A stretch of DNA of 64,000 nucleotides from a bacterium (GCA_030697645.1 JAUYPI010000006.1:12017-76016); one strand, 5' to 3'. Positions 18,916 to 33,550 are shown, counted from the stretch's first letter. Program-made: numbers and translations. The notes: a model not told the origin generated them from the sequence alone.

Positions 18916-20202
18916 TTAGAGGCTACATGCTACAAAGAACTGTTCAATCGATGTAGACCAACGGGCTGTATGCATGCAGTAAAATTGCGGACCGTCAGGA
19001 ACATGTTTGTCAACGATCGTGCGTAACTCGGCGCCCGTAATAGATGCCGCGGCGAGTTGCCCCTCGGCGGTGAGCAGTTTTCCTAGATGCCGTAGAGTGC
19101 CGTAGGTAGACCCGCGATCTCGACGGAAATCCTCGATGGAACAGCCCGTATGCGCACGAAGCGTCTCCGGCGTGATCGAGCTCGACTCAAGGAGATTAGC
19201 TAGGCAGTCGAGGAGGCCCGGCACATGCAAAAAGAATGATGGGAAGCGGTACGCTGCCGCTCCCCGATTGATGCGTATCAGCGTTCCTCGATCGCCGAAC
19301 AGAGCACTCGACGGTTCAAAGCGTGGTAATCGCTCGCCCTCCGTCGTGCAGAGCGTGAGCGTTGTTTCAATGAATTCCGGCCGTAAGATACCAGTCAGAA
19401 ATTTAAACTTCCGTTTTTGTCCGCGGAAGAACACCTTGTGGAAGAGCGCGAAGCAGTGCGCCATGCAGCGATGTTTATACGGAAGCCGCGTATTCGTTTC
19501 GACAGCGCAGAAAGGGGGGATGCCGCAGAGCCGCGACATGGTGACAATGGTCCGCATGAATTCTGGATCGCCGTGGTACAGCTCGTCGCGAAACAATGAA
19601 GCGAGCTCGCCACTCACATGGCACACTTCGGTAAAGTCTGATGTCCCATACGGCTCCCCACGCCCCGGAATAAACCGCATACTCACCCATTCCTCTATCA
19701 AAGGCGGACTGTGTTCAATACCGTGCCCCGCGGGTTCCATCGCATGCGGCTCGCGAATTTCACCGTAGAGCGGGTACTCGACATTGAGCAGGTACACGAG
19801 GCTTTTGGTATCGAACTCGTCGAGCGGCGGGCAATCGCCGTAGCGATTATACGAGCTGCGGCAGGCGAGTGTCAGACGGAGTGCGGATTCGTTGGTCCAG
19901 CATGGATCGTAGAGTGGCTTCGCCACATATATGGTTAACGTCGTGTGCCCGAACCGCTCGCATGCACACGGCGTCAGTGATTCTCTACATTCACGGCCAA
20001 GAGCGATGACTTGTTCCAGTGGGGGCTGCGGTACTATGGAAACGTATAGCTCACTCTGCTGCGGCAAAAGGTAGGGAACTGTGCGCATGTGGTGTCCTTT
20101 CTTTTGATTATGGGTAGCATACAAGAACGGCCCGTGGCCATCTTTTTTGGAACTCGTGTCTGGTCTGAGATACAGTCTAGAGTGCCGAGATTCATTTGTC
20201 AA
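18916..20202 (-). CDS. Hypothetical Cys/His-rich protein, divergent from the E1-like gene
   Basis: 428 aa. No recognisable family. Many Cys/His residues. Only 46 bp separate its start from the gene at 20249. Confidence 0.4.
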   Translation of the reverse strand: MTNESRHSRLYLRPDTSSKKDGHGPFLYATHNQKKGHHMRTVPYLLPQQSELYVSIVPQPPLEQVIALGRECRESLTPCACERFGHTTLTIYVAKPLYDPCWTNESALRLTLACRSSYNRYGDCPPLDEFDTKSLVYLLNVEYPLYGEIREPHAMEPAGHGIEHSPPLIEEWVSMRFIPGRGEPYGTSDFTEVCHVSGELASLFRDELYHGDPEFMRTIVTMSRLCGIPPFCAVETNTRLPYKHRCMAHCFALFHKVFFRGQKRKFKFLTGILRPEFIETTLTLCTTEGERLPRFEPSSALFGDRGTLIRINRGAAAYRFPSFFLHVPGLLDCLANLLESSSITPETLRAHTGCSIEDFRRDRGSTYGTLRHLGKLLTAEGQLAAASITGAELRTIVDKHVPDGPQFYCMHTARWSTSIEQFFVACSL

Positions 20203-20248
20203 AAATATGCACTGGCACCTTTCGCTTTCGTGAGTTTATGGCTATCAT

Positions 20249-21553
20249 ATGGTAATGTCCTCGGAGCGTCATGGACAGCACAAGGGGCGACTTATGGGCA
20301 AGCCCGTGCTGATCGGTGCTGCCCGAGCGCACCGAAGCGGCAGCGTCCGCTATCTTAAAAACGGCACCGCATGTATCAAAATTCCTGACATAAGCGAGAT
20401 ACGCATTCCACGTGCGCGGCAATTTGATCTCACCGAGGCTACGATCTTCGGGCTTAACGAACGTTTGACTTCTACTGCCGCTTCACCAATTGTTGGTGCT
20501 CGGGGCAGGATGCAGAAAACGCTTCGCGACGTGTTCAACGCCGAGTGGCAGAGGTATGCGAGAGCCTTGGAGCGCGCCGAGGACGCCGGTTCTTTTAACT
20601 ACGGCATCTATGCTCTGTATCGAGGCGAACAGACCCTTGTGCGTTACGCGTCGCCCAAGTGGCACCGGATCGTTGCTATCGCCAGCAGCTCCACGCTGCT
20701 CACCGATCCTCGGCGAGAACTCAGCTGGCAGGAGGTACAGTCGTGTTTCGCGAAGACAACGATCGCGGTTGCAGGCGGGAGCGTCGGTGGTAATGTGCTC
20801 CACTGTGCGGTGATGGACATGCGTCCGGCCGCGGTTAAAATCGCGGACAAAAGCGTGTATAAAATGGAAAATATTAATCGCGTACGGCTTCGCTACGATG
20901 AACTTGTTTCGTCAAATGAACACCGCTCCTCTCTTGCCGAGACGCTCCTGCGCAACAAGGCAGAAGTATTGGCGACGCAACTCTACGCGATAGATCCGTT
21001 TTTGAGAGCGTATGTGTATGCAGAGGGCATTACGCACGAGACACTTGGGCCGTTTCTCGACGGTACCGGCCGAGAACCCGCAGTGGATATCATCGTCGAG
21101 GAAGTAGATGACCCTCGTACCAAAATCTTACTCCGCGAAGCCGCGCGCGAGCGGCGCTTGCCGCTCATCATGGTCTCTGACTTTGGGTCCGCGGTGCAAC
21201 TCGATGTCTCGCGATATGACCTCAACCCATCGGCACCGCTCGCGTACGGTACGGAAGATGCGCTCCTTCGTACGCGCACTGATGCATTGTATGAACGAGT
21301 CGGTGACCGCGACGCTTTTTTTGATTTTGTCGATGCGCTCGCCGGCACCGACTATCGCACTGGTGAGCTCGCGGCGATTCTTCGAGGCTCGTGCGAAATC
21401 CCTACTTCCACCATCATACCGCAACTCGGCTCAACCGCCGCGATGGCAGGCGCCATCGCGGCGGAAACCATAGCGCGTGTACGCCTAGGACATCGCTATC
21501 CATCGCGCGTCGTTATGAATAAGCACACATGTGCCGTGAAGCGATATGAGTGA
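20249..21553 (+). CDS. ThiF/MoeB/E1-like adenylyltransferase-family protein with about 170-aa N-terminal extension
   Basis: Rossmann motif IAVAGGSVGGNVLHCAVMDMRPAAVKIADKSVYKMENINR and C-terminal IPQLGSTAAMAGAIAAETIARVRLG typical of the ThiF/E1 fold. Confidence 0.6.
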   Translation: MVMSSERHGQHKGRLMGKPVLIGAARAHRSGSVRYLKNGTACIKIPDISEIRIPRARQFDLTEATIFGLNERLTSTAASPIVGARGRMQKTLRDVFNAEWQRYARALERAEDAGSFNYGIYALYRGEQTLVRYASPKWHRIVAIASSSTLLTDPRRELSWQEVQSCFAKTTIAVAGGSVGGNVLHCAVMDMRPAAVKIADKSVYKMENINRVRLRYDELVSSNEHRSSLAETLLRNKAEVLATQLYAIDPFLRAYVYAEGITHETLGPFLDGTGREPAVDIIVEEVDDPRTKILLREAARERRLPLIMVSDFGSAVQLDVSRYDLNPSAPLAYGTEDALLRTRTDALYERVGDRDAFFDFVDALAGTDYRTGELAAILRGSCEIPTSTIIPQLGSTAAMAGAIAAETIARVRLGHRYPSRVVMNKHTCAVKRYE

Positions 21554-21556
21554 CCG

Positions 21557-22732
21557 TCACGGAGATGGCTCGTGTGTGAGGACAAGTTCCTCAAGCGGCA
21601 CCCGCGGCGCTCTCGGACGCAGTGCATGCGCCGGGTTGCGCAGGTAACCGGCACGAAACAACGCCGCAATGGGACGAAGCGTGCCAAGAGTGAGTGCAAA
21701 CATTTTATTGACGAGGGCGACTTCGACAAGCGCGGCATGAACCGCAACCGCAATGTCGGCGCTCGTGAGCTCGAGGAGGATGCGCTCGAGCATGCGGCCG
21801 GCAGCAAGCCAGTGGGCGACGTCGTTTTTTTTAATCGTGAGGATACCTATGAGCGGGGAGCTTTCAATCCCTGCTTTACCACCGAGCGCAAACCGGAGCA
21901 TATCGTCTGGCCTGAGCGCGCCCTCTCCGACAAGGCCGTCGTGGATACGTATCGCCTGCGTATCACTGAGGCCGAACCCTATTCCCGGCATGCCACGTCC
22001 TGCGTCGGTGTCGTTGTGGAGTAGCCAGTGACCGAGCTCGCGGCTAAAGCGTGGTGAGTTGAGGACGAAATTGTCAGCTTGCGCTTGAAATTCTGCAATC
22101 GCGCGCCGTCTGACGCCATCGGTGATGAGATGAATCTTCACGCCACTCTCGTGCATCGCGAGAATTTTTTTCATGAGCGCGTGCGGCATGTGTTTTTCTG
22201 GCAGAAATTCAGCCCGCGTCATTTTGCGTGTAAAAAGGGCTCGCATGAGAGCGTGTGCGCCTCGAGCATCCCGAAGCCCTGCATGCGCCGGCTCGTCAAA
22301 TAATATTTCGGCAAGGGGCACGTACCTCTGTTCACTCCGGGCAAGAGCGGGTTTGACCTCGGATAGAGCGGCGTTGCGTAGTCGTGCCGCTCGCGTGAGA
22401 CCGTAGTAGCTCGCCGCAATGAGAGCGTTCTCCACTGCCGCACCGATGCTGATAACCGACTGTCTGCCCGTCGGGTCAGATGCGGGAAGCACAAACCTGC
22501 GGTCGAGAAAAAACTGCAAGGCTGGATTTCGTTCTCTAGTTCTAAGAACGAATGCCCATGGTTGCGTGTTGTGTGTGCTCGGGGCACGCGAGGCGCAGCA
22601 GGCAAGATATCGCAGACGCCGCTCCGGCGTAAGCGCTCCAAATGCCTCGTATGAGAGCATCGTCTCGCACACTACCTTTTCCTGTACACGCTCACGCATA
22701 GGGGGCGACGCATTGAAGCCAGTATAGTACAC
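21557..22732 (-). CDS. Nitroreductase-fold (SagB/McbC-type dehydrogenase-like) protein
   Basis: 391 aa. N-terminal nitroreductase signature RRLRYLACCASRAPSTHNTQPWAFVL. Size fits a double nitroreductase-like domain. Convergent with the E1-like gene across a 3-nt gap. Confidence 0.55.
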   Translation of the reverse strand: MYYTGFNASPPMRERVQEKVVCETMLSYEAFGALTPERRLRYLACCASRAPSTHNTQPWAFVLRTRERNPALQFFLDRRFVLPASDPTGRQSVISIGAAVENALIAASYYGLTRAARLRNAALSEVKPALARSEQRYVPLAEILFDEPAHAGLRDARGAHALMRALFTRKMTRAEFLPEKHMPHALMKKILAMHESGVKIHLITDGVRRRAIAEFQAQADNFVLNSPRFSRELGHWLLHNDTDAGRGMPGIGFGLSDTQAIRIHDGLVGEGALRPDDMLRFALGGKAGIESSPLIGILTIKKNDVAHWLAAGRMLERILLELTSADIAVAVHAALVEVALVNKMFALTLGTLRPIAALFRAGYLRNPAHALRPRAPRVPLEELVLTHEPSP

Positions 22733-22968
22733 TATCGGTATGCAATATTATACTATAATCACAAGCGAGCGGAAAGCGAAAAGAGGTCTTTTCATTTTCC
22801 GCCAGCGCCGTGATTATATTCAAGCGAGCGAGCGACATGCGAGAGAGTATGCCCTCTCGCATGTCCGAGCGAGCGCAGAATATATGGCACGTATGCCATA
22901 TATACCCAAAAACATTCGCAAACCTGCTGCTTTTGGGTATATAACCAGAGCGTAACACCACGAAATGT

Positions 22969-24597
22969 ATGGAGTCACTTTCTACTGAGCTTCTTCTTGG
23001 CGCGCTCGCATTTAGCACCGCTGGCCTTCTCGGACTTGTTGTATTTTTGCGGGACAGAAAGAGCGCGACCCACCAACTATTCTTCGTGCTTGCCGTTTTG
23101 ATCGAAGCGTATATCGTCGTTAACTTTGTCTCGCTGCACCCGCCACGCACCACACCGGAGAGCCAGCTCTTCTGGATCCGGATGGTCATGTTCGTCGTGT
23201 CATATATCGGACCGACGCTCCTTTTGCTCGTCACGACGTTCCCCGCGAAGCGAATTCGTCTCTCGTGGCGCTTGCTCGTGCCAGTGGGTATGCTCATGGT
23301 CGCTTCCGCCGCCGCCTCTCTTTTGCCGTTCGTGTTTTCGTCAATCCACTATCCGGAAGGTGAGCCGATCCCCATTCCCGGCCCCGGCATATTTGTCTTT
23401 GCGGCAGACTTCGTCGGCCTTTTTATTCTCAGCTTTGTCGTTCTATTGGTTCGTTATCGCCGTGCAGTGGGACCAGAACGCTCCATGCTCAACTACCTCT
23501 TCTGGGGTGTAGTAGTGTCGTTCTCGCTCATGGCGATTTTCGCGTTTCTATTCGTTGTCGTCATCAAAACATCAGCGTTCGTCTTCCTCGGCCCTATTTT
23601 CCCGGTGATCCTTATGGCATCGATCGCTTATGCGATCGTTCGGCATAGGATGTTTAACATTCGTCTTATTGCTACTGAAGCGCTTGTCGTCTCCATCCTC
23701 ATCTTTCTCTTCGTGCGTTTATTTACTCGCCTCTCTACAACAGACATCGTCATCGACGCTACTATCTTTGTTCTCTCTGCGGTGTTCGGGGTGCTTGTGA
23801 TCCGTGGCGTCCACAGAGAAGCAGCGGCACGCGAGCGGATACAAAAACTTGCTGACGATCTCAGAGCGGCGAACGTTCGCCTCCAAGAGCTCGACCAGCT
23901 CAAATCCGAGTTTCTCTCACTTGCCTCGCACCAGATTAGGACGCCGATCTCAGTGATCAAAGGCTATGCATCCCTTCTTCTTGAAGGATCGATCGGGCCA
24001 CTCACTGAGCAGGTGCACGAGGCGGTGGATCGTATTTTTCGTTCAGGCAACGCGCTCGCGCTCATTGTAGACGACTTTTTGAACATATCACGCATCGAAC
24101 AGGGGCAGCTGAAGTATGATTTCGTCGAGATTGATCTTTCAGCCCTTCTGTCCCGCCTCGTCGAGGAGCAACGTTCGGTGTCTGAGAAGATAGGACTCAC
24201 ACTCGACCTCCACATGCAAACGGGGGAACCCGTCACCATACAGGGGGACGAAGGAAAAATTCGTCAGGTTGTCGCGAACCTCATCGACAATGCGATTAAG
24301 TACACGCCGCATGGGGGCATCACTGTGACGCTCGGAGGGCATGCTGAGGAGGGGTGCGTACACCTCTCGGTTTCTGACACCGGCATCGGCATAGCAAAAG
24401 AGACGATCCCAACGCTGTTCACCAAATTCGGCCGTGCAAAGAATGCGAGCGCACATAATGTCTCCGGCACTGGCCTCGGCCTCTACCTTGCAAGACAAAT
24501 TGTCCAGGCGCACGGCGGTAAAATTTGGGCCGAGTCCGAAGGGGAAGGGAAAGGCACAACCTTACATCTCGAGCTCCGCAAGCGGCTCCTATCGTAG
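22969..24597 (+). CDS. Multi-pass membrane sensor histidine kinase
   Basis: 542 aa. About 7 N-terminal TM helices. HisKA H-box SHQIRTP, N-box NLIDNAIKYTP, DTGIGI, GTGLGL. Confidence 0.8.
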   Translation: MESLSTELLLGALAFSTAGLLGLVVFLRDRKSATHQLFFVLAVLIEAYIVVNFVSLHPPRTTPESQLFWIRMVMFVVSYIGPTLLLLVTTFPAKRIRLSWRLLVPVGMLMVASAAASLLPFVFSSIHYPEGEPIPIPGPGIFVFAADFVGLFILSFVVLLVRYRRAVGPERSMLNYLFWGVVVSFSLMAIFAFLFVVVIKTSAFVFLGPIFPVILMASIAYAIVRHRMFNIRLIATEALVVSILIFLFVRLFTRLSTTDIVIDATIFVLSAVFGVLVIRGVHREAAARERIQKLADDLRAANVRLQELDQLKSEFLSLASHQIRTPISVIKGYASLLLEGSIGPLTEQVHEAVDRIFRSGNALALIVDDFLNISRIEQGQLKYDFVEIDLSALLSRLVEEQRSVSEKIGLTLDLHMQTGEPVTIQGDEGKIRQVVANLIDNAIKYTPHGGITVTLGGHAEEGCVHLSVSDTGIGIAKETIPTLFTKFGRAKNASAHNVSGTGLGLYLARQIVQAHGGKIWAESEGEGKGTTLHLELRKRLLS

Positions 24598-29993: not shown

Positions 29994-31106
29994 CTATCGT
30001 GGAGAAGATGCAGGATTCGTCTGGCGGAGCGGGATCGTGAATCGTATGGTAGTGCCTTCGTTTTCAGCGCTGGTGAAATCCATCTTACCGCCGTGGTTTT
30101 CGACGATATTTTTCGCCATGTAGAGGCCGAGGCCGGTGCCGGCGGTAGCATAGAGTTTAGCATTTCTGGCGCGGAAGAATTGATCGAAGACCTGGCGCTG
30201 TTGCTCCTTCGGGATGCCAATGCCGGTGTCTGCGACGCTGACCTCGATGTCTCGCGCCTTCTTTCGTACGGTGAGCGCGACCGCACCTCCTTCAGGCGTA
30301 TATTTGATCGCGTTGTTGATAAGGTTGTCAATAACGATGCCGACTTTTTCTGCGTCGATCGAAATTGAGGGCAGCACGGAGGGCAGAGAGATTGAGAAAG
30401 CGACTCGCTTACGCTTGGCAACAGGACGCGTTGCGTTAACGACCTTTTCAATAATCGGCAGGAAATCCTGTTCCACCGGCACGAAGCCAAAGCGTCCTTC
30501 CTCGATGCGCGCAGTGTCGAGGAGGTCGCTAATGAGCTCTGTCGCAGTGACTGTCACCCCGAGGCTCTCATTGAGTATTTTGAGCTGTTCCTCACTGAGC
30601 GGCCCGAGTTCGCCGTCAACAAGCGACTGGAGCGACCAACGCACGCCTGTGAGAGGTGTCCGGAGCTGGTGCGCCGCGACTGAGACGAATTCTGATTTGA
30701 CGAGATCAAGGCCTTCGAGGCGCGTGTTCGCGCTCGAGAGCTCGATATCACGGCGCACGAGCACCTTGCCGACCTCGCTGAATTCACCCGCGACGCGGGA
30801 ATACTCATCGTTCGCCCGGGAGGACTCTCGGTCTTTGCGCACGAGAAGCCGTGCGCTATCGGTGTTCTCGTGAAGCCATACTTCGAGCTCTTGGTTGTGT
30901 TTGCTGAGCGTGCGCACGGCGCTGAACGCTGCCGTCGCCGCCCCCGCTGCAGTGAGGGCGGTGAGAGCGCCCCAGAGCACGCGGTTAAGCAGGCCTGCCG
31001 TTAAAATCGCGGCCGCAGTCACGAGCGGCGAGAGAAGGAGCGCGAGGGTAAGGCGGAGGCGGGGGGAGAGAGTAAAGATATTGCCGGCATGTTTGGGAAA
31101 GTGCAT
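29994..31106 (-). CDS. Sensor histidine kinase (2 TM, HisKA plus HATPase_c)
   Basis: H-box AAHQLRTPL, N-box DNLINNAIKYTP, DTGIGIP, GTGLGLY. ORF track start 31121 is TTG. ATG at 31106. Confidence 0.8.
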   Translation of the reverse strand: MHFPKHAGNIFTLSPRLRLTLALLLSPLVTAAAILTAGLLNRVLWGALTALTAAGAATAAFSAVRTLSKHNQELEVWLHENTDSARLLVRKDRESSRANDEYSRVAGEFSEVGKVLVRRDIELSSANTRLEGLDLVKSEFVSVAAHQLRTPLTGVRWSLQSLVDGELGPLSEEQLKILNESLGVTVTATELISDLLDTARIEEGRFGFVPVEQDFLPIIEKVVNATRPVAKRKRVAFSISLPSVLPSISIDAEKVGIVIDNLINNAIKYTPEGGAVALTVRKKARDIEVSVADTGIGIPKEQQRQVFDQFFRARNAKLYATAGTGLGLYMAKNIVENHGGKMDFTSAENEGTTIRFTIPLRQTNPASSPR

Positions 31107-31124
31107 GGGAGTAAAATGCAAAGT

Positions 31125-31335
31125 TCAAAGCGCAAAACGCAAAACAACAACGCAAAATAACACAGTAAAATTCGAATTTCCAACCAACAAGCTCCAAATC
31201 AAATAAATTCCAAGCTCCAACCAACAAGCTCCAAACAAATTTCAAATTCCAATGCATCAAATCTCAAACACGCACGTCGTGTTTGGAAATTGGATTTTGA
31301 ATATTGGGATTTGTTTGGAAATTGTTTTTTGGAAA
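31125..31335. repeat. Family-1-variant giant palindrome (units TTCCAAA/TTTGGAA)
   Basis: Centre CTCAAACACGCACGTCGTGTTTGG. Arms with duplicated CCAACCAACAAGCTCCAAA. Outer arms GCAAAACGCAAAACAACAACGCAAAA / TTTTGCTTTTTGCACTGTTGTTTTTCGC. Confidence 0.6.
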
Positions 31336-31387
31336 TTGGAGATTCGTTTTGCTTTTTGCACTGTTGTTTTTCGCTTTACACTTTGCG

Positions 31388-32590
31388 TTACTTCGTCCCA
31401 ATCCCCACAATCGTAATCGTCCCATTATGGAACAGCGTCGGCTCGGGTGCAGTGCCGCCGCCGATCGCGTGTATCGCGGGCGCGTACTCGCCGTAGCTTG
31501 CAATGCCGAGAAGCGGCGTATCACGCCCCACGATATCAAGAATAGCGTTGGTTTCGTCTTTGATCATAGCACCGAGGAGTTTTTTGCGTGAGATGCTCTC
31601 AAAGACGAGGAGGAGTTTCAGCGAGACGTGTGAGCGCTTCAAGCGCTCCATCAGGCCCTCGGTCGCGGTGCATGCAGCAGTCAGCGCTTTTTCTTTGCTC
31701 CCGATCATGAGACGAACCCGAGCGCCCTCGGGTATTGCCGCGGCGAGAGTGAGCGAACCGTCTTCTTCTGCCCTGAGGGGATTTCGGATGAGGTACTCAT
31801 CGCTCACGCCAGTGCGGACGCCAAGTGGGTAGCCGAGTGCCGAATGTGCGAGTGGCTCGGCGCGAAGTTTTGATAGATCTTCCCCGAAATAGTCTTCGTA
31901 GATAGACGCAGCTCTCCTTCCCTCGAGTTCAAAAACGCGCGTACCTTCTGCGCGCGTTACTCTCTGCGGTATGCCGACCGGTATCCAGCCGCCTTCGACG
32001 CCGATGCCGAGCACGCATTCGCCTGAGATCGCACAACCGACAAGAGCGTCGTCTCCAACGAGAGCGTCCCGGTACTGGAACGTCCGCTCGAACGTGAGCT
32101 CATCACTTGCCGCCACTCCGGCAGCCGGTATATTCGCACCGAGCACACTCTGCAAGCCCCCGAGCACCTCGGCAGCGCCGCCTCGGAGCATATTAGCGAA
32201 GAGGAGGAGTCCGACGAGCTCCCCGGTGGCGAGTTCCCTGATTTCTTGCCCTACGAGGGCGCCTGCGGCGCGGGCGCCGTTTTTCATGAGCCCCATACCG
32301 GAGGCGAATGTGACTGAGTCGCTCTCGAGCGCGACGACCGCTACCGTCTGGTCAACGGGGCCTTCATTCGTGAGGATCCCCGTGGCTGAACAGCCGACAA
32401 GGGGAGCGTTGCCGCTTGCGTCCCGCACGCCGCGGACGAGCGCCTCCTGGTCGTAGAGTGTAGAAGCGAATACCAAAAGCTGCGTCGGCCGCTCAACCCC
32501 CGCCCTCTCAAGGGCGCTCTGAGCTGCCGCAAAACCCGCTTGGTGCGCGTCGTGTTCTTTGGCGGTGCCGACTCCGACGATGAGAGACAT
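31388..32590 (-). CDS. FIST-domain (FIST_N plus FIST_C) sensory protein
   Basis: 400 aa. N-terminal MSLIVGVGTAKEHDAHQAGFAAAQ ... LLVFASTLYDQEALVRGVRDASGNAPLVGCSATGIL typical of FIST sensors. Confidence 0.5.
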   Translation of the reverse strand: MSLIVGVGTAKEHDAHQAGFAAAQSALERAGVERPTQLLVFASTLYDQEALVRGVRDASGNAPLVGCSATGILTNEGPVDQTVAVVALESDSVTFASGMGLMKNGARAAGALVGQEIRELATGELVGLLLFANMLRGGAAEVLGGLQSVLGANIPAAGVAASDELTFERTFQYRDALVGDDALVGCAISGECVLGIGVEGGWIPVGIPQRVTRAEGTRVFELEGRRAASIYEDYFGEDLSKLRAEPLAHSALGYPLGVRTGVSDEYLIRNPLRAEEDGSLTLAAAIPEGARVRLMIGSKEKALTAACTATEGLMERLKRSHVSLKLLLVFESISRKKLLGAMIKDETNAILDIVGRDTPLLGIASYGEYAPAIHAIGGGTAPEPTLFHNGTITIVGIGTK

Positions 32591-32801
32591 GGGGGATGAT
32601 GGCGCAACCGCTCACGCCTTAAAATTTTGCGCTCGAGCTTCGGCGTTTAGAAATAACAGTCGCCTCATTGACGAAAAACGCATAACTCGCCTGCGGGCTC
32701 AAACAGATGCGTTTTTCTATTCGGCTCCTTTATTTCCAAAACGCCTCTCGCTATGCGCAAAATTTTAAGGCGTGAGCGGTTCCGGCGTGAGAGTGGTTTG
32801 A

Positions 32802-33272
32802 CTACGTAATTCCGAGCAACTGCTCTATCTTCGCCACGATCTCGTTCGGCGATGTGTTCGCTTTGACAGCGTAGTCCGCAGCCCCGATCTGCCTTGCTTT
32901 CTCAAGGTCGTCTCGTTGACCGAGATTGGAGAGAATAAGCACGGGGATATGTTTCATCTTTTCATTCGCCTTGATCTCGCGCAGGAGCACGAAGCCGTCC
33001 TCGCCGGGAAGGATGAGATCAAGGCAAACGAGATTGATCGGCTTTTCGGCAAGGAGTGCGCGACCCTCTTCGACCGTCTCCGCCCGAAAGACGGTAAATT
33101 TCTGATCGTGGAGCTTTCGCTCAAGCATGCCGCCGAGAAACGGGTCGTCTTCAACAACGAGGAGCACAGCGCGAGTCTCCTCAGGTGAGATTTCTCGTGG
33201 AGCATCGCCTGATCCTGCCACACTGTCCGCACCGGGACCGGTGGCGCTCTCTTGAATGCTGTCATCATTCAT
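32802..33272 (-). CDS. Stand-alone response-regulator receiver (CheY-like) protein
   Basis: REC domain VLLVVEDD...LDLILPGEDG...ILSNLG...K. Probable start MNDDS at 33272 (ORF track 33398). Confidence 0.7.
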   Translation of the reverse strand: MNDDSIQESATGPGADSVAGSGDAPREISPEETRAVLLVVEDDPFLGGMLERKLHDQKFTVFRAETVEEGRALLAEKPINLVCLDLILPGEDGFVLLREIKANEKMKHIPVLILSNLGQRDDLEKARQIGAADYAVKANTSPNEIVAKIEQLLGIT

Positions 33273-33550
33273 AGAAGTATTGAGAGTATAACAAAGAGAG
33301 CGCACGGCGCACAAGGACACCCCTGTGTATAACGTGCGCTTGACAGGGGATGCAGGCCGCGTTACATTGTGATATAAGGTCAAAATGTTACATGTCAAAT
33401 GTCATGAACTCGGATTTCGAGCCCCGAATATTCGGATTTGGATAAGTCTTTTTTATCAGTTAATTTTTTACGCCGAGATCGCTTCGCACTGTCGTCCGCG
33501 CTCATCGAGGCGTCGGTAATTTCCGAAGCGATTCTCGCGTACCACATAGT

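Follow-up and report, generated by a model that had tools for sequence, protein, structure and literature searches.

What does a ThiF/E1-like enzyme do when it is encoded beside a nitroreductase-fold protein, a cysteine-rich protein and a sensor histidine kinase with several transmembrane helices? This question is raised by a stretch of 64,000 nucleotides from a bacterium of the phylum Patescibacteria (GCA_030697645.1, JAUYPI010000006.1:12017-76016), called the window in the following, with positions counted from its first letter. An earlier reading of this DNA by a model (the original prediction) had suggested that the genes X, E1 and NR, lying next to the kinase gene HK, form either a module for a ribosomally synthesised and post-translationally modified peptide (RiPP) of the thiazole/oxazole-modified (TOMM) type or a ubiquitin-like module. 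Neither proposal held up, given the fold of X, the similarity of E1 to the cyclase TrzS, the assignment of NR to the Acg-like flavin-dependent oxidases (FDO), the lack of a conserved small open reading frame (ORF) and the lack of a cysteine or zinc motif in E1. The ordinary case that had been named as the alternative, a common MoeB/ThiF-type activator next to a common NAD(P)H nitroreductase, fails as well. A third option, leading from an N-acyl amino acid to an oxazolone, fits better: X, E1 and NR probably constitute a split pathway of the OxzAB/TyzACB/TrzAS type for a small-molecule heterocycle, and the kinase is a co-inherited partner of these biosynthetic genes.

Acyl-oxazolone pathways start with an acyltransferase that transfers an acyl group from acyl-coenzyme A (acyl-CoA) to the nitrogen of an aromatic amino acid; a ThiF enzyme then adenylates the carboxylate of this intermediate and the ring closes, and an oxidase desaturates the bond between C-alpha and C-beta (bioRxiv 10.1101/2020.06.11.147165, PMC10404671, PMC12856293). 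Oxazolone (azlactone) products and their ThiF-nitroreductase synthetases were discovered from 2020 to 2025. Fused ThiF-FDO oxazolone synthetases are represented by TrzA/TrzS (Rv1356c/Rv1355c; PMC12856293) and by OxzA/OxzB of Pseudoalteromonas rubra (bioRxiv 10.1101/2020.06.11.147165), whereas the N-acyl tyrazolones of Mycobacterium tuberculosis are made by Rv2336 (TyzA), Rv2338c (TyzB) and Rv2337c (TyzC) (PMC10404671). The genes of the window were set against these systems by folds, family affinities, motifs, a gene fusion and the conserved neighbourhood. Between 18.9 and 24.6 kb, four long ORFs are found at the positions given in the original prediction, and the features on which the argument turns are the following:

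18916-20088, minus strand: gene X, 390 aa as corrected (ORF as listed, 18916-20202); acyltransferase-type domain with an acyl-homoserine lactone (AHL)-synthase/FeeM-like GNAT fold in the model at about residues 20-245, and a helical C-terminal domain at about residues 245-390
20294-21553, plus strand: gene E1, 419 aa as corrected (ORF as listed, 20249-21553)
20294-20698, plus strand: N-terminal extension of E1, about residues 1-135, highly conserved, with the motif QFDLTQATIFGLNERLT
20774-20788, plus strand: nucleotide-binding loop of E1 in a Rossmann fold, G161-x-S163-V164-G165, invariant in 86 sequences and in the type-2 cyclases described below
21098-21112, plus strand: acidic motif of E1, E269-E270-V-D272-D273, with E270 and D272 invariant, aligning with IEECD of a TrzS homolog
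21557-22732, minus strand: gene NR, nitroreductase-fold oxidase, 391 aa as listed, with the start probably at Met12 (22699) or Met25 (22660)
22969-24597, plus strand: gene HK, sensor histidine kinase, 542 aa, coordinates unchanged; seven-transmembrane (7TM) sensor at residues 1-290 (22969-23838), HisKA at 312-379 and HATPase_c at 426-538 (Pfam)

The top NCBIfam family of E1 was Rv1355c (TrzS), matched through its ThiF half (5.6e-30, residues 90-419 on model positions 36-328), with a lead of more than 20 orders of magnitude over all other models (at least 2.8e-8). On this family model E1 scored 104 bits against a cutoff of 476, partly because the model describes a two-domain fusion. The match to Pfam ThiF lay just under the cutoff, and the ThiF, MoeB and TcdA models gave 14-33 bits with cutoffs of 150-340 (E values of 1e-4 to 1e-8 for ThiF/TcdA). 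By BLASTP, E1 was 28% identical (E 1e-22) to the ThiF half of an Rv1355c-family protein from a Rhodococcus plasmid, and both proteins share the motifs VEExD and PQLG (VEEVDD/IEECDS and IPQLGS/WPQLGG). The best sequence matches in the PDB were TcdA-type proteins. An AlphaFold2 model of E1 reached a predicted local distance difference test (pLDDT) of 93; its top structural match was AclA (PDB 9egb), on which a literature search returned nothing relevant, and MoeB and UBA5 were close structural neighbours.

More than 120 homologs of E1 at 50-62% identity were recovered, from Patescibacteria wherever the source names them. In 86 homologs, the residues G161xSVG165, D185, N193/N195/R196 (NxNR), K222 and E270/D272 are invariant. 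The D217A mutation abolishes the cyclase activity of TrzS (PMC12856293), and the acidic motif of E1 is, judged by its sequence, the probable counterpart of the aspartate mutated there. E1 contains no CxxC motif, and no cysteine is conserved above 17% in the 86 sequences; therefore, a thioester- or zinc-dependent mechanism of the E1/MoeB kind is unlikely. By analogy to the known pathways, we propose that E1 is an ATP-dependent cyclase which would adenylate the carboxylate of an N-acyl amino acid, followed by closure of an oxazolone. The N-terminal extension noticed in the original prediction is real and comprises about 135 conserved residues, among them the motif FGLNERLT. It is modelled as small strands followed by helices, and its first 55-90 residues are missing from TrzS-type and type-2 cyclases.

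NR has a nitroreductase fold, as predicted and as agreed on by Pfam, NCBIfam and PDB searches, but the label of a SagB-type protein has to be given up: no SagB or McbC model matched at E<=1, and the only matching models were Acg, Rv1355c, PRK14851 and PRK14852. The best match was NF047509 (Acg family FMN-binding oxidoreductase; 4.8e-52, residues 46-383 on positions 5-318 of 319), a full-length alignment with 177.4 bits against a curated cutoff of 199. The scores thus suggest a related clade of the FDO subgroup and not a certified Acg member. To the FDO half of the Rv1355c model, NR matched with 5.8e-18 and 64 bits (family cutoff 476), and the closest solved relative was Acg of Mycobacterium smegmatis (PDB 2YMV, 1.1e-6). 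NR carries the motif APSTHNTQPW and is 44-49% identical to the oxidases encoded next to E1 in other loci. It is proposed to act as a flavin-dependent alpha,beta-desaturase, and its association with E1 hints that Acg-like oxidases are able to work with ThiF cyclases.

Protein X had no match in Pfam, NCBIfam or the PDB sequences, and a Pfam scan of 109 members of its family returned only noise. A word-indexed search yielded X itself and one relative, so that an exhaustive profile search was needed, which gave 231 family representatives. Modelling of the structure, a check named already in the original prediction, revealed an AHL-synthase/FeeM-like fold (AlphaFold2 with the family alignment; pLDDT 91, predicted template modelling score 0.90) with LasI, FeeM, TofI, RpaI and MesI as the best structural matches. 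A protein modelled with a FeeM/AHL-synthase-like fold is thus encoded beside the cyclase. Foldseek against the PDB gave no significant match for X (best E 0.047, with BjaI among the weak matches only) and none for its C-terminal helical domain of about 145 aa. FeeM and the CoA-dependent AHL synthase BjaI are the reported closest structural neighbours of TyzA (PMC10404671). We propose that X serves the pathway as N-acyl amino acid synthase, and on the basis of the model it appears to define an acyltransferase family not previously recognised, with more than 230 sequence clusters and invisible to Pfam.

The description of X as a Cys/His-rich protein of 428 aa was correct in part. This ortholog is rich in cysteine (4.1%), but the family median is 1.1%, and the length is 390 aa. 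Cys188 in the motif SRxCG is the sole conserved cysteine of the family (92% of members). A metal site, considered for the Cys/His richness of X, was rejected, as this richness is not conserved in the family.

Two metagenome proteins of the X family differ from the others in their domains. The first (P0140, 460 aa) has an N-terminal extension, residues 29-90 of which match Pfam Acetyltransf_5 with 31.9 bits against a gathering score of 22.4. Acetyltransf_5 is the GNAT family to which the FeeM-type N-acyl amino acid synthases belong, and this is the sole tie seen at the sequence level between the X family and canonical synthases. In the second (P0247, 705 aa), an X-family domain (residues 379-702) is preceded by a fused dihydroorotate dehydrogenase domain (PF01180, residues 51-340). 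Here, an FMN-dependent alpha,beta-desaturase is joined to the acyltransferase; it might genuinely take the place of the Acg-like oxidase, or the fusion might be an artifact of gene calling.

The association of these genes goes beyond chance, as it was seen again in dozens of independent loci, and NR adjoins E1 in every locus compared. In all 10 of the 10 close loci, X and E1 are followed by a convergent NR, and two unrelated flanking contexts were seen, with DnaJ upstream in the window and locus L001 and with arginyl-tRNA synthetase upstream in loci like L002. Rearranged loci with the full set have the orders E1-NR-X, NR-E1-X and E1-X-NR, and in one protein (P0169, 795 aa) X is fused to E1, including the N-terminal extension of the latter. 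In locus L075, an X-family gene has a strongly TrzS-like cyclase (294 bits) on one side and a TrzS-like FDO on the other (181-191 bits; both on the Rv1355c/PRK14851 models), a position that would be the slot expected of the acyltransferase. Type-2 loci have X replaced by a PaaK-like adenylate-forming ligase and a ScyB-like aromatic amino acid dehydrogenase. Their cyclase (228 bits) and FDO (179-184 bits) are strong TrzS-like matches, and the partner enzymes speak for a chemistry of small molecules and aromatic amino acids instead of peptides. The locus of the window thus contains a protein modelled with the FeeM/AHL fold, a TrzS-clade ThiF enzyme with an intact adenylation motif and an adjacent FDO, which are the components by which an acyl-oxazolone cluster is recognised.

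In some type-2 loci, an alpha/beta hydrolase is encoded between the biosynthetic genes and the kinase (L033, 5087-5959, confirmed by Pfam; L028, 2589-3470, and L039, 5113-5982, alike by eye), and in L088 (5021-5974) the same slot is taken by a 317-aa protein without a Pfam match. The genes in this slot suggest extra tailoring or ring-opening steps. Five records titled 'uncultured Gammaproteobacteria bacterium' (L005, L006, L007, L008 and L011) have the same four-gene locus with an E1 identity of 53-55%. The same locus type is found in records titled Parcubacteria or Magasanikiibacteriota, and the Gammaproteobacteria labels are probably wrong.

The multi-transmembrane sensor kinase that was predicted to follow these genes is a HisKA_7TM kinase (PF16927, 37.8 bits; HisKA 63.7 and HATPase_c 104.2 bits; cutoffs 28.6, 26.9 and 26.4). 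Orthologs with sensor domains of 26-62% identity follow the module in every locus that was recovered through E1 and extends far enough. The association was also tested in reverse with an alignment of the 7TM sensor domains alone, which retrieved 80 metagenome loci, 34 of them with at least 4 kb upstream. Module genes lay directly upstream of the kinase in 29 of these 34, and both E1 and NR in 25. When all loci were pooled and near-identical kinases collapsed, module genes were present in 42 of 47 and the E1 and NR pair in 39 of 47. The pooled loci have more than 20 gene orders, and the kinase comes last in all of them. Distant kinase homologs without the module were found in L036, L050, L084, L091 and L096. 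In type-2 loci, the kinase gene starts about 10-20 nt after the preceding gene, whereas in type-1 loci NR and HK share a divergent promoter region. The wide distribution of the module in Patescibacteria appears to be new, and so does the finding that it is almost always followed by an orthologous 7TM kinase. No adjoining sensor kinase is mentioned in the papers cited here on the oxz, tyz and trz genes, nor in PMC12479983 (0 occurrences).

Stand-alone CheY-like receiver proteins of about 125-150 aa are encoded directly after the kinase in six loci (L030, L035, L046, L067, L080 and L084). They start 20-175 nt downstream of the kinase or overlap it slightly, the distance being at most 60 nt except in L030, and are candidate cognate regulators in these loci. 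The sole receiver protein of the window (32802-33398) belongs to a separate two-component locus on the minus strand (29994-33398), which consists of a cytoplasmic histidine kinase (29994-31121), a FIST-domain protein (31388-32590) and this receiver-only regulator.

How might these proteins work together? The substrates, product and order of reactions proposed here are taken from the known pathways. In a first step, X would N-acylate a free amino acid, which by analogy is probably aromatic. E1 would then use ATP for adenylating the carboxylate of this N-acyl amino acid, and attack by the amide oxygen would close a 5(4H)-oxazolone (azlactone), with neither a thioester nor a ubiquitin-like carrier. 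Finally, the Acg-like FMN oxidase would introduce the alpha,beta double bond to yield an unsaturated oxazolone, the hydrolysis of which would give an N-acyl dehydro-amino acid. The ligand of the kinase is deduced from its co-inheritance: the kinase most likely perceives the product or something lipid-like and related to it, and alternatively it might control the expression of the module. Taken together, this tentatively suggests a coupled unit for the production and sensing of a small molecule. A more specific version, for which we see a lesser chance, is that of a production-and-perception cassette in Patescibacteria, in which the kinase would be the receptor of the oxazolone-type (or N-acyl dehydro-amino acid) product, and variable upstream enzymes would create lineage-specific signals matched by divergent sensor domains.

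Among the known systems, TyzACB resembles the window in its organisation. Both encode three separate proteins. The acyltransferase exceeds 300 aa, has an orphan sequence and is folded like FeeM and the AHL synthases; the ThiF-like, ATP-dependent cyclase stands alone, and so does the Acg-like FDO, a monomer of about 370 aa. In both, the acyltransferase gene is adjacent on the opposite strand. However, X has no sequence match to any known family, E1 has 419 aa with an extra conserved N-terminal domain compared to 318 aa in TyzB, the genes of cyclase and oxidase are convergent instead of lying in one operon, and the host belongs to the Patescibacteria. In addition, the 7TM kinase is a constant neighbour of the module, whereas tyz is flanked by cysK1, cysE and mmpL9. 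With TrzAS and OxzAB, the window shares matches of E1 and NR to both halves of the NCBIfam Rv1355c model and the VEExD and PQLG motifs, and the type-2 relatives match this family strongly. In contrast, the window has one gene for each of the two domains, on opposite strands, the Acg model fits NR better than the FDO of TrzS does, and the scores are far below the Rv1355c cutoff; therefore, the window does not encode an equivalog of TrzS.

A synthase gene next to a multi-pass membrane sensor kinase is known from the autoinducer systems CqsA/CqsS and LuxM/LuxN of Vibrio. The window likewise has a small-molecule synthase gene beside a histidine kinase with a sensor of transmembrane helices, and X is modelled with an AHL-synthase fold. 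HK, however, has no sequence relationship to CqsS or LuxN, and no cognate response regulator or phosphotransfer protein was identified beside it. The same trio of enzyme types occurs in the NasY-ThiF-nitroreductase clusters, which make the N-acyl dehydrotyrosines stieleriacines, thalassotalic and kyonggic acids (PMC12479983). The end product in the window may be a ring-opened N-acyl dehydro-amino acid instead of an oxazolone; the NasY clusters differ in their canonical N-acyl amino acid synthases (NasY) and in their hosts, Planctomycetota and Pseudomonadota. In a plasmid of Rhodococcus qingshengii (pdjl-6-4; L098, 2874-7022), an Rv1355c-family gene adjoins a GGDEF-domain gene and a divergent gene for a 252-aa hypothetical protein. 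The GGDEF gene echoes the cyclic di-GMP neighbours reported for trzAS of M. tuberculosis (PMC12856293).

Several points weigh against the assignment to the oxazolone pathway. The modelled kinship of X to known synthases is at the level of the fold only, and an hhalign comparison of the X family to the hypothetical protein adjoining the Rhodococcus TrzS gene (assumed to be TrzA) gave a probability of 9%. NR resembles the FDO domain of TrzS weakly (67 aa, E 3e-6) and lies below the Acg cutoff, so its substrate could differ. E1 has a distinctive and highly conserved N-terminal domain, and no response regulator is found beside HK in the window. Patescibacteria are mostly anaerobic and usually without fatty-acid synthesis, whereas O2 and acyl-CoA are the co-substrates of the known FDOs and synthases, respectively, which makes both uncertain here. 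The oxazolone itself is a prediction from the genes.

Among the alternatives, the one that survives best is that the same trio processes an exogenous, host-derived N-acyl amino acid or lipid, in scavenging, detoxification or signal quenching, while the kinase senses the external substrate. The kinase is conserved, while acylation is assigned either to X or to a PaaK-like ligase, which may be joined by a dehydrogenase or an alpha/beta hydrolase, and therefore the constant core consists of cyclase, oxidase and sensor. Patescibacteria also rely on their hosts for lipids. However, X or a PaaK-like protein is encoded in nearly every locus as the amide-forming or activating enzyme, in agreement with de novo synthesis, and the fusion of X to E1 argues for coupled acylation and cyclization, so that we regard this explanation as unlikely.

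Slightly less credit is given to the idea that E1 and NR act on another carboxylate, such as a nucleoside or tRNA as in the case of TcdA, or a cofactor precursor, and that X provides another acyl or aminoacyl group. The 104 bits of E1 and the 64 bits of NR are far under the TrzS cutoff, NR is more similar to Acg, for which no substrate is known, and no characterisation of the top structural match AclA was found in the literature. The TcdA-type proteins among the best PDB sequence matches of E1 fit as well; TcdA (tRNA ct6A synthase) uses a ThiF fold for carboxylate activation and intramolecular ring closure. TcdA, however, has no oxidase or acyltransferase partners, its models are far worse than that of TrzS for E1, and a membrane sensor kinase would be an odd companion for tRNA modification. 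A graded series of loci moreover leads from canonical TrzS-like pairs to the type of the window, with the same kinase throughout and often with X.

A RiPP or TOMM-like pathway, in which E1 would bind a leader peptide through an N-terminal domain resembling a RiPP recognition element and NR would oxidize azolines in a ribosomal peptide, is very improbable. An E1-like protein paired with an FMN enzyme does follow the logic of the TOMM C and B components, and the strands and helices in the extension of E1 could be read in this way. The original prediction itself had recognised neither a YcaO protein nor a precursor and had left room for a system unrelated to TOMMs, which is borne out: YcaO, SagB and McbC gave no match at E<=1 in Pfam and NCBIfam for any of the four proteins. 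An all-against-all comparison of ORFs of 18-90 aa in and around 13 type-1 loci found no conserved small ORF, the recurrent ones being shadows inside large genes; this result covers the loci, with a precursor elsewhere in the genome being outside its scope. In most loci the module genes abut or overlap, X is modelled with a GNAT/AHL-synthase fold, and the type-2 partners are small-molecule enzymes. What the pairing of E1 and a flavin enzyme had indicated, an azole-type heterocycle chemistry, agrees with the oxazolone assignment. Activation of a ubiquitin-like protein or sulfur carrier by a MoeB/ThiF/E1 enzyme with an ordinary nitroreductase nearby by chance is scarcely credible, as the Pfam ThiF match and the structural neighbours MoeB and UBA5 are opposed by the missing CxxC and conserved cysteines in 86 sequences, the low ThiF/MoeB/TcdA scores, the absence of a ThiS-, MoaD- or Ubl-like small ORF, the nitroreductase neighbour that is conserved or fused across the family and the lack of a PADLOC match. 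The PADLOC models gave no match at E<=0.01 for X, E1 and NR, and only generic ATPase-domain matches for HK; a role in anti-phage defense was rejected for the lack of matches to the first three.

Some details of the layout complete the description of the locus, with the following features:

20089-20293: divergent spacer between X and E1, with one weak inverted repeat only and without a conserved small ORF
22733-22968: divergent spacer of 236 bp between NR and HK, with four strong inverted repeats
22769-22802, 22834-22865, 22880-22903 and 22899-22943: inverted repeats in the NR/HK spacer, with arms of 16 nt at 94% and 88% complementarity and of 12 nt and 10 nt with perfect complementarity

Translation of X most likely begins at Met39 of the 428-aa ORF (20088), as supported by homologs and the AlphaFold model. 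In the public annotation (locus tag U1A28_03900, 336 aa), the start is placed 54 codons further downstream, which would remove two confidently modelled beta strands. The start of E1 at Met16 of its ORF (20294) was set by homologs. E1 and NR converge with their ends at 21553 and 21557, confirming the gap of 3 nt noted before. The divergence of X and E1 is peculiar to this genome, whereas in relatives X is co-directional and lies 5-110 nt upstream of E1. Housekeeping genes flank the locus, with DnaK and DnaJ upstream and tryptophanyl-tRNA synthetase and elongation factor G downstream. An Rfam scan of the 64-kb window found no family at the gathering score, tRNA included, and the spacers are thus without an Rfam RNA match.

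Palindromic, operator-like sites had been predicted in the 236-bp region. The inverted repeats exist, but 9 related loci, with L001 as the closest relative among them, lack them, and no further copies occur in the window; a function as conserved operators was rejected on these grounds. They may be a local regulatory feature outside the conserved system.

Patescibacteria have minimal genomes and rarely retain biosynthetic clusters. The papers cited here report pathways of this type from Pseudomonadota, Actinomycetota and Planctomycetota (bioRxiv 10.1101/2020.06.11.147165, PMC10404671, PMC12856293, PMC12479983), and a literature search found no paper tying these enzymes to Patescibacteria, to which the pathway type would now be extended. 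The version in this phylum would be marked by four features, namely the acyltransferase family not recognised before, the additional domain of the cyclase, an oxidase of the Acg-like type and the tightly co-inherited 7TM kinase. The physiological role of oxazolones has been called "a major unresolved question", and a role as signals has been speculated on (PMC12856293; bioRxiv 10.1101/2020.06.11.147165). A 7TM kinase that stays attached to the cyclase-oxidase pair across more than 20 gene rearrangements is a concrete and testable candidate partner and offers a handle on this function. A response of the kinase to the product would provide oxazolones with a function and Patescibacteria with a means of chemical communication. 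Should the kinase indeed be the receptor, it would be the first oxazolone receptor identified, and these ultra-small bacteria, most of them episymbionts, would have their first described chemical signaling system of a quorum-sensing-like or host-symbiont kind.

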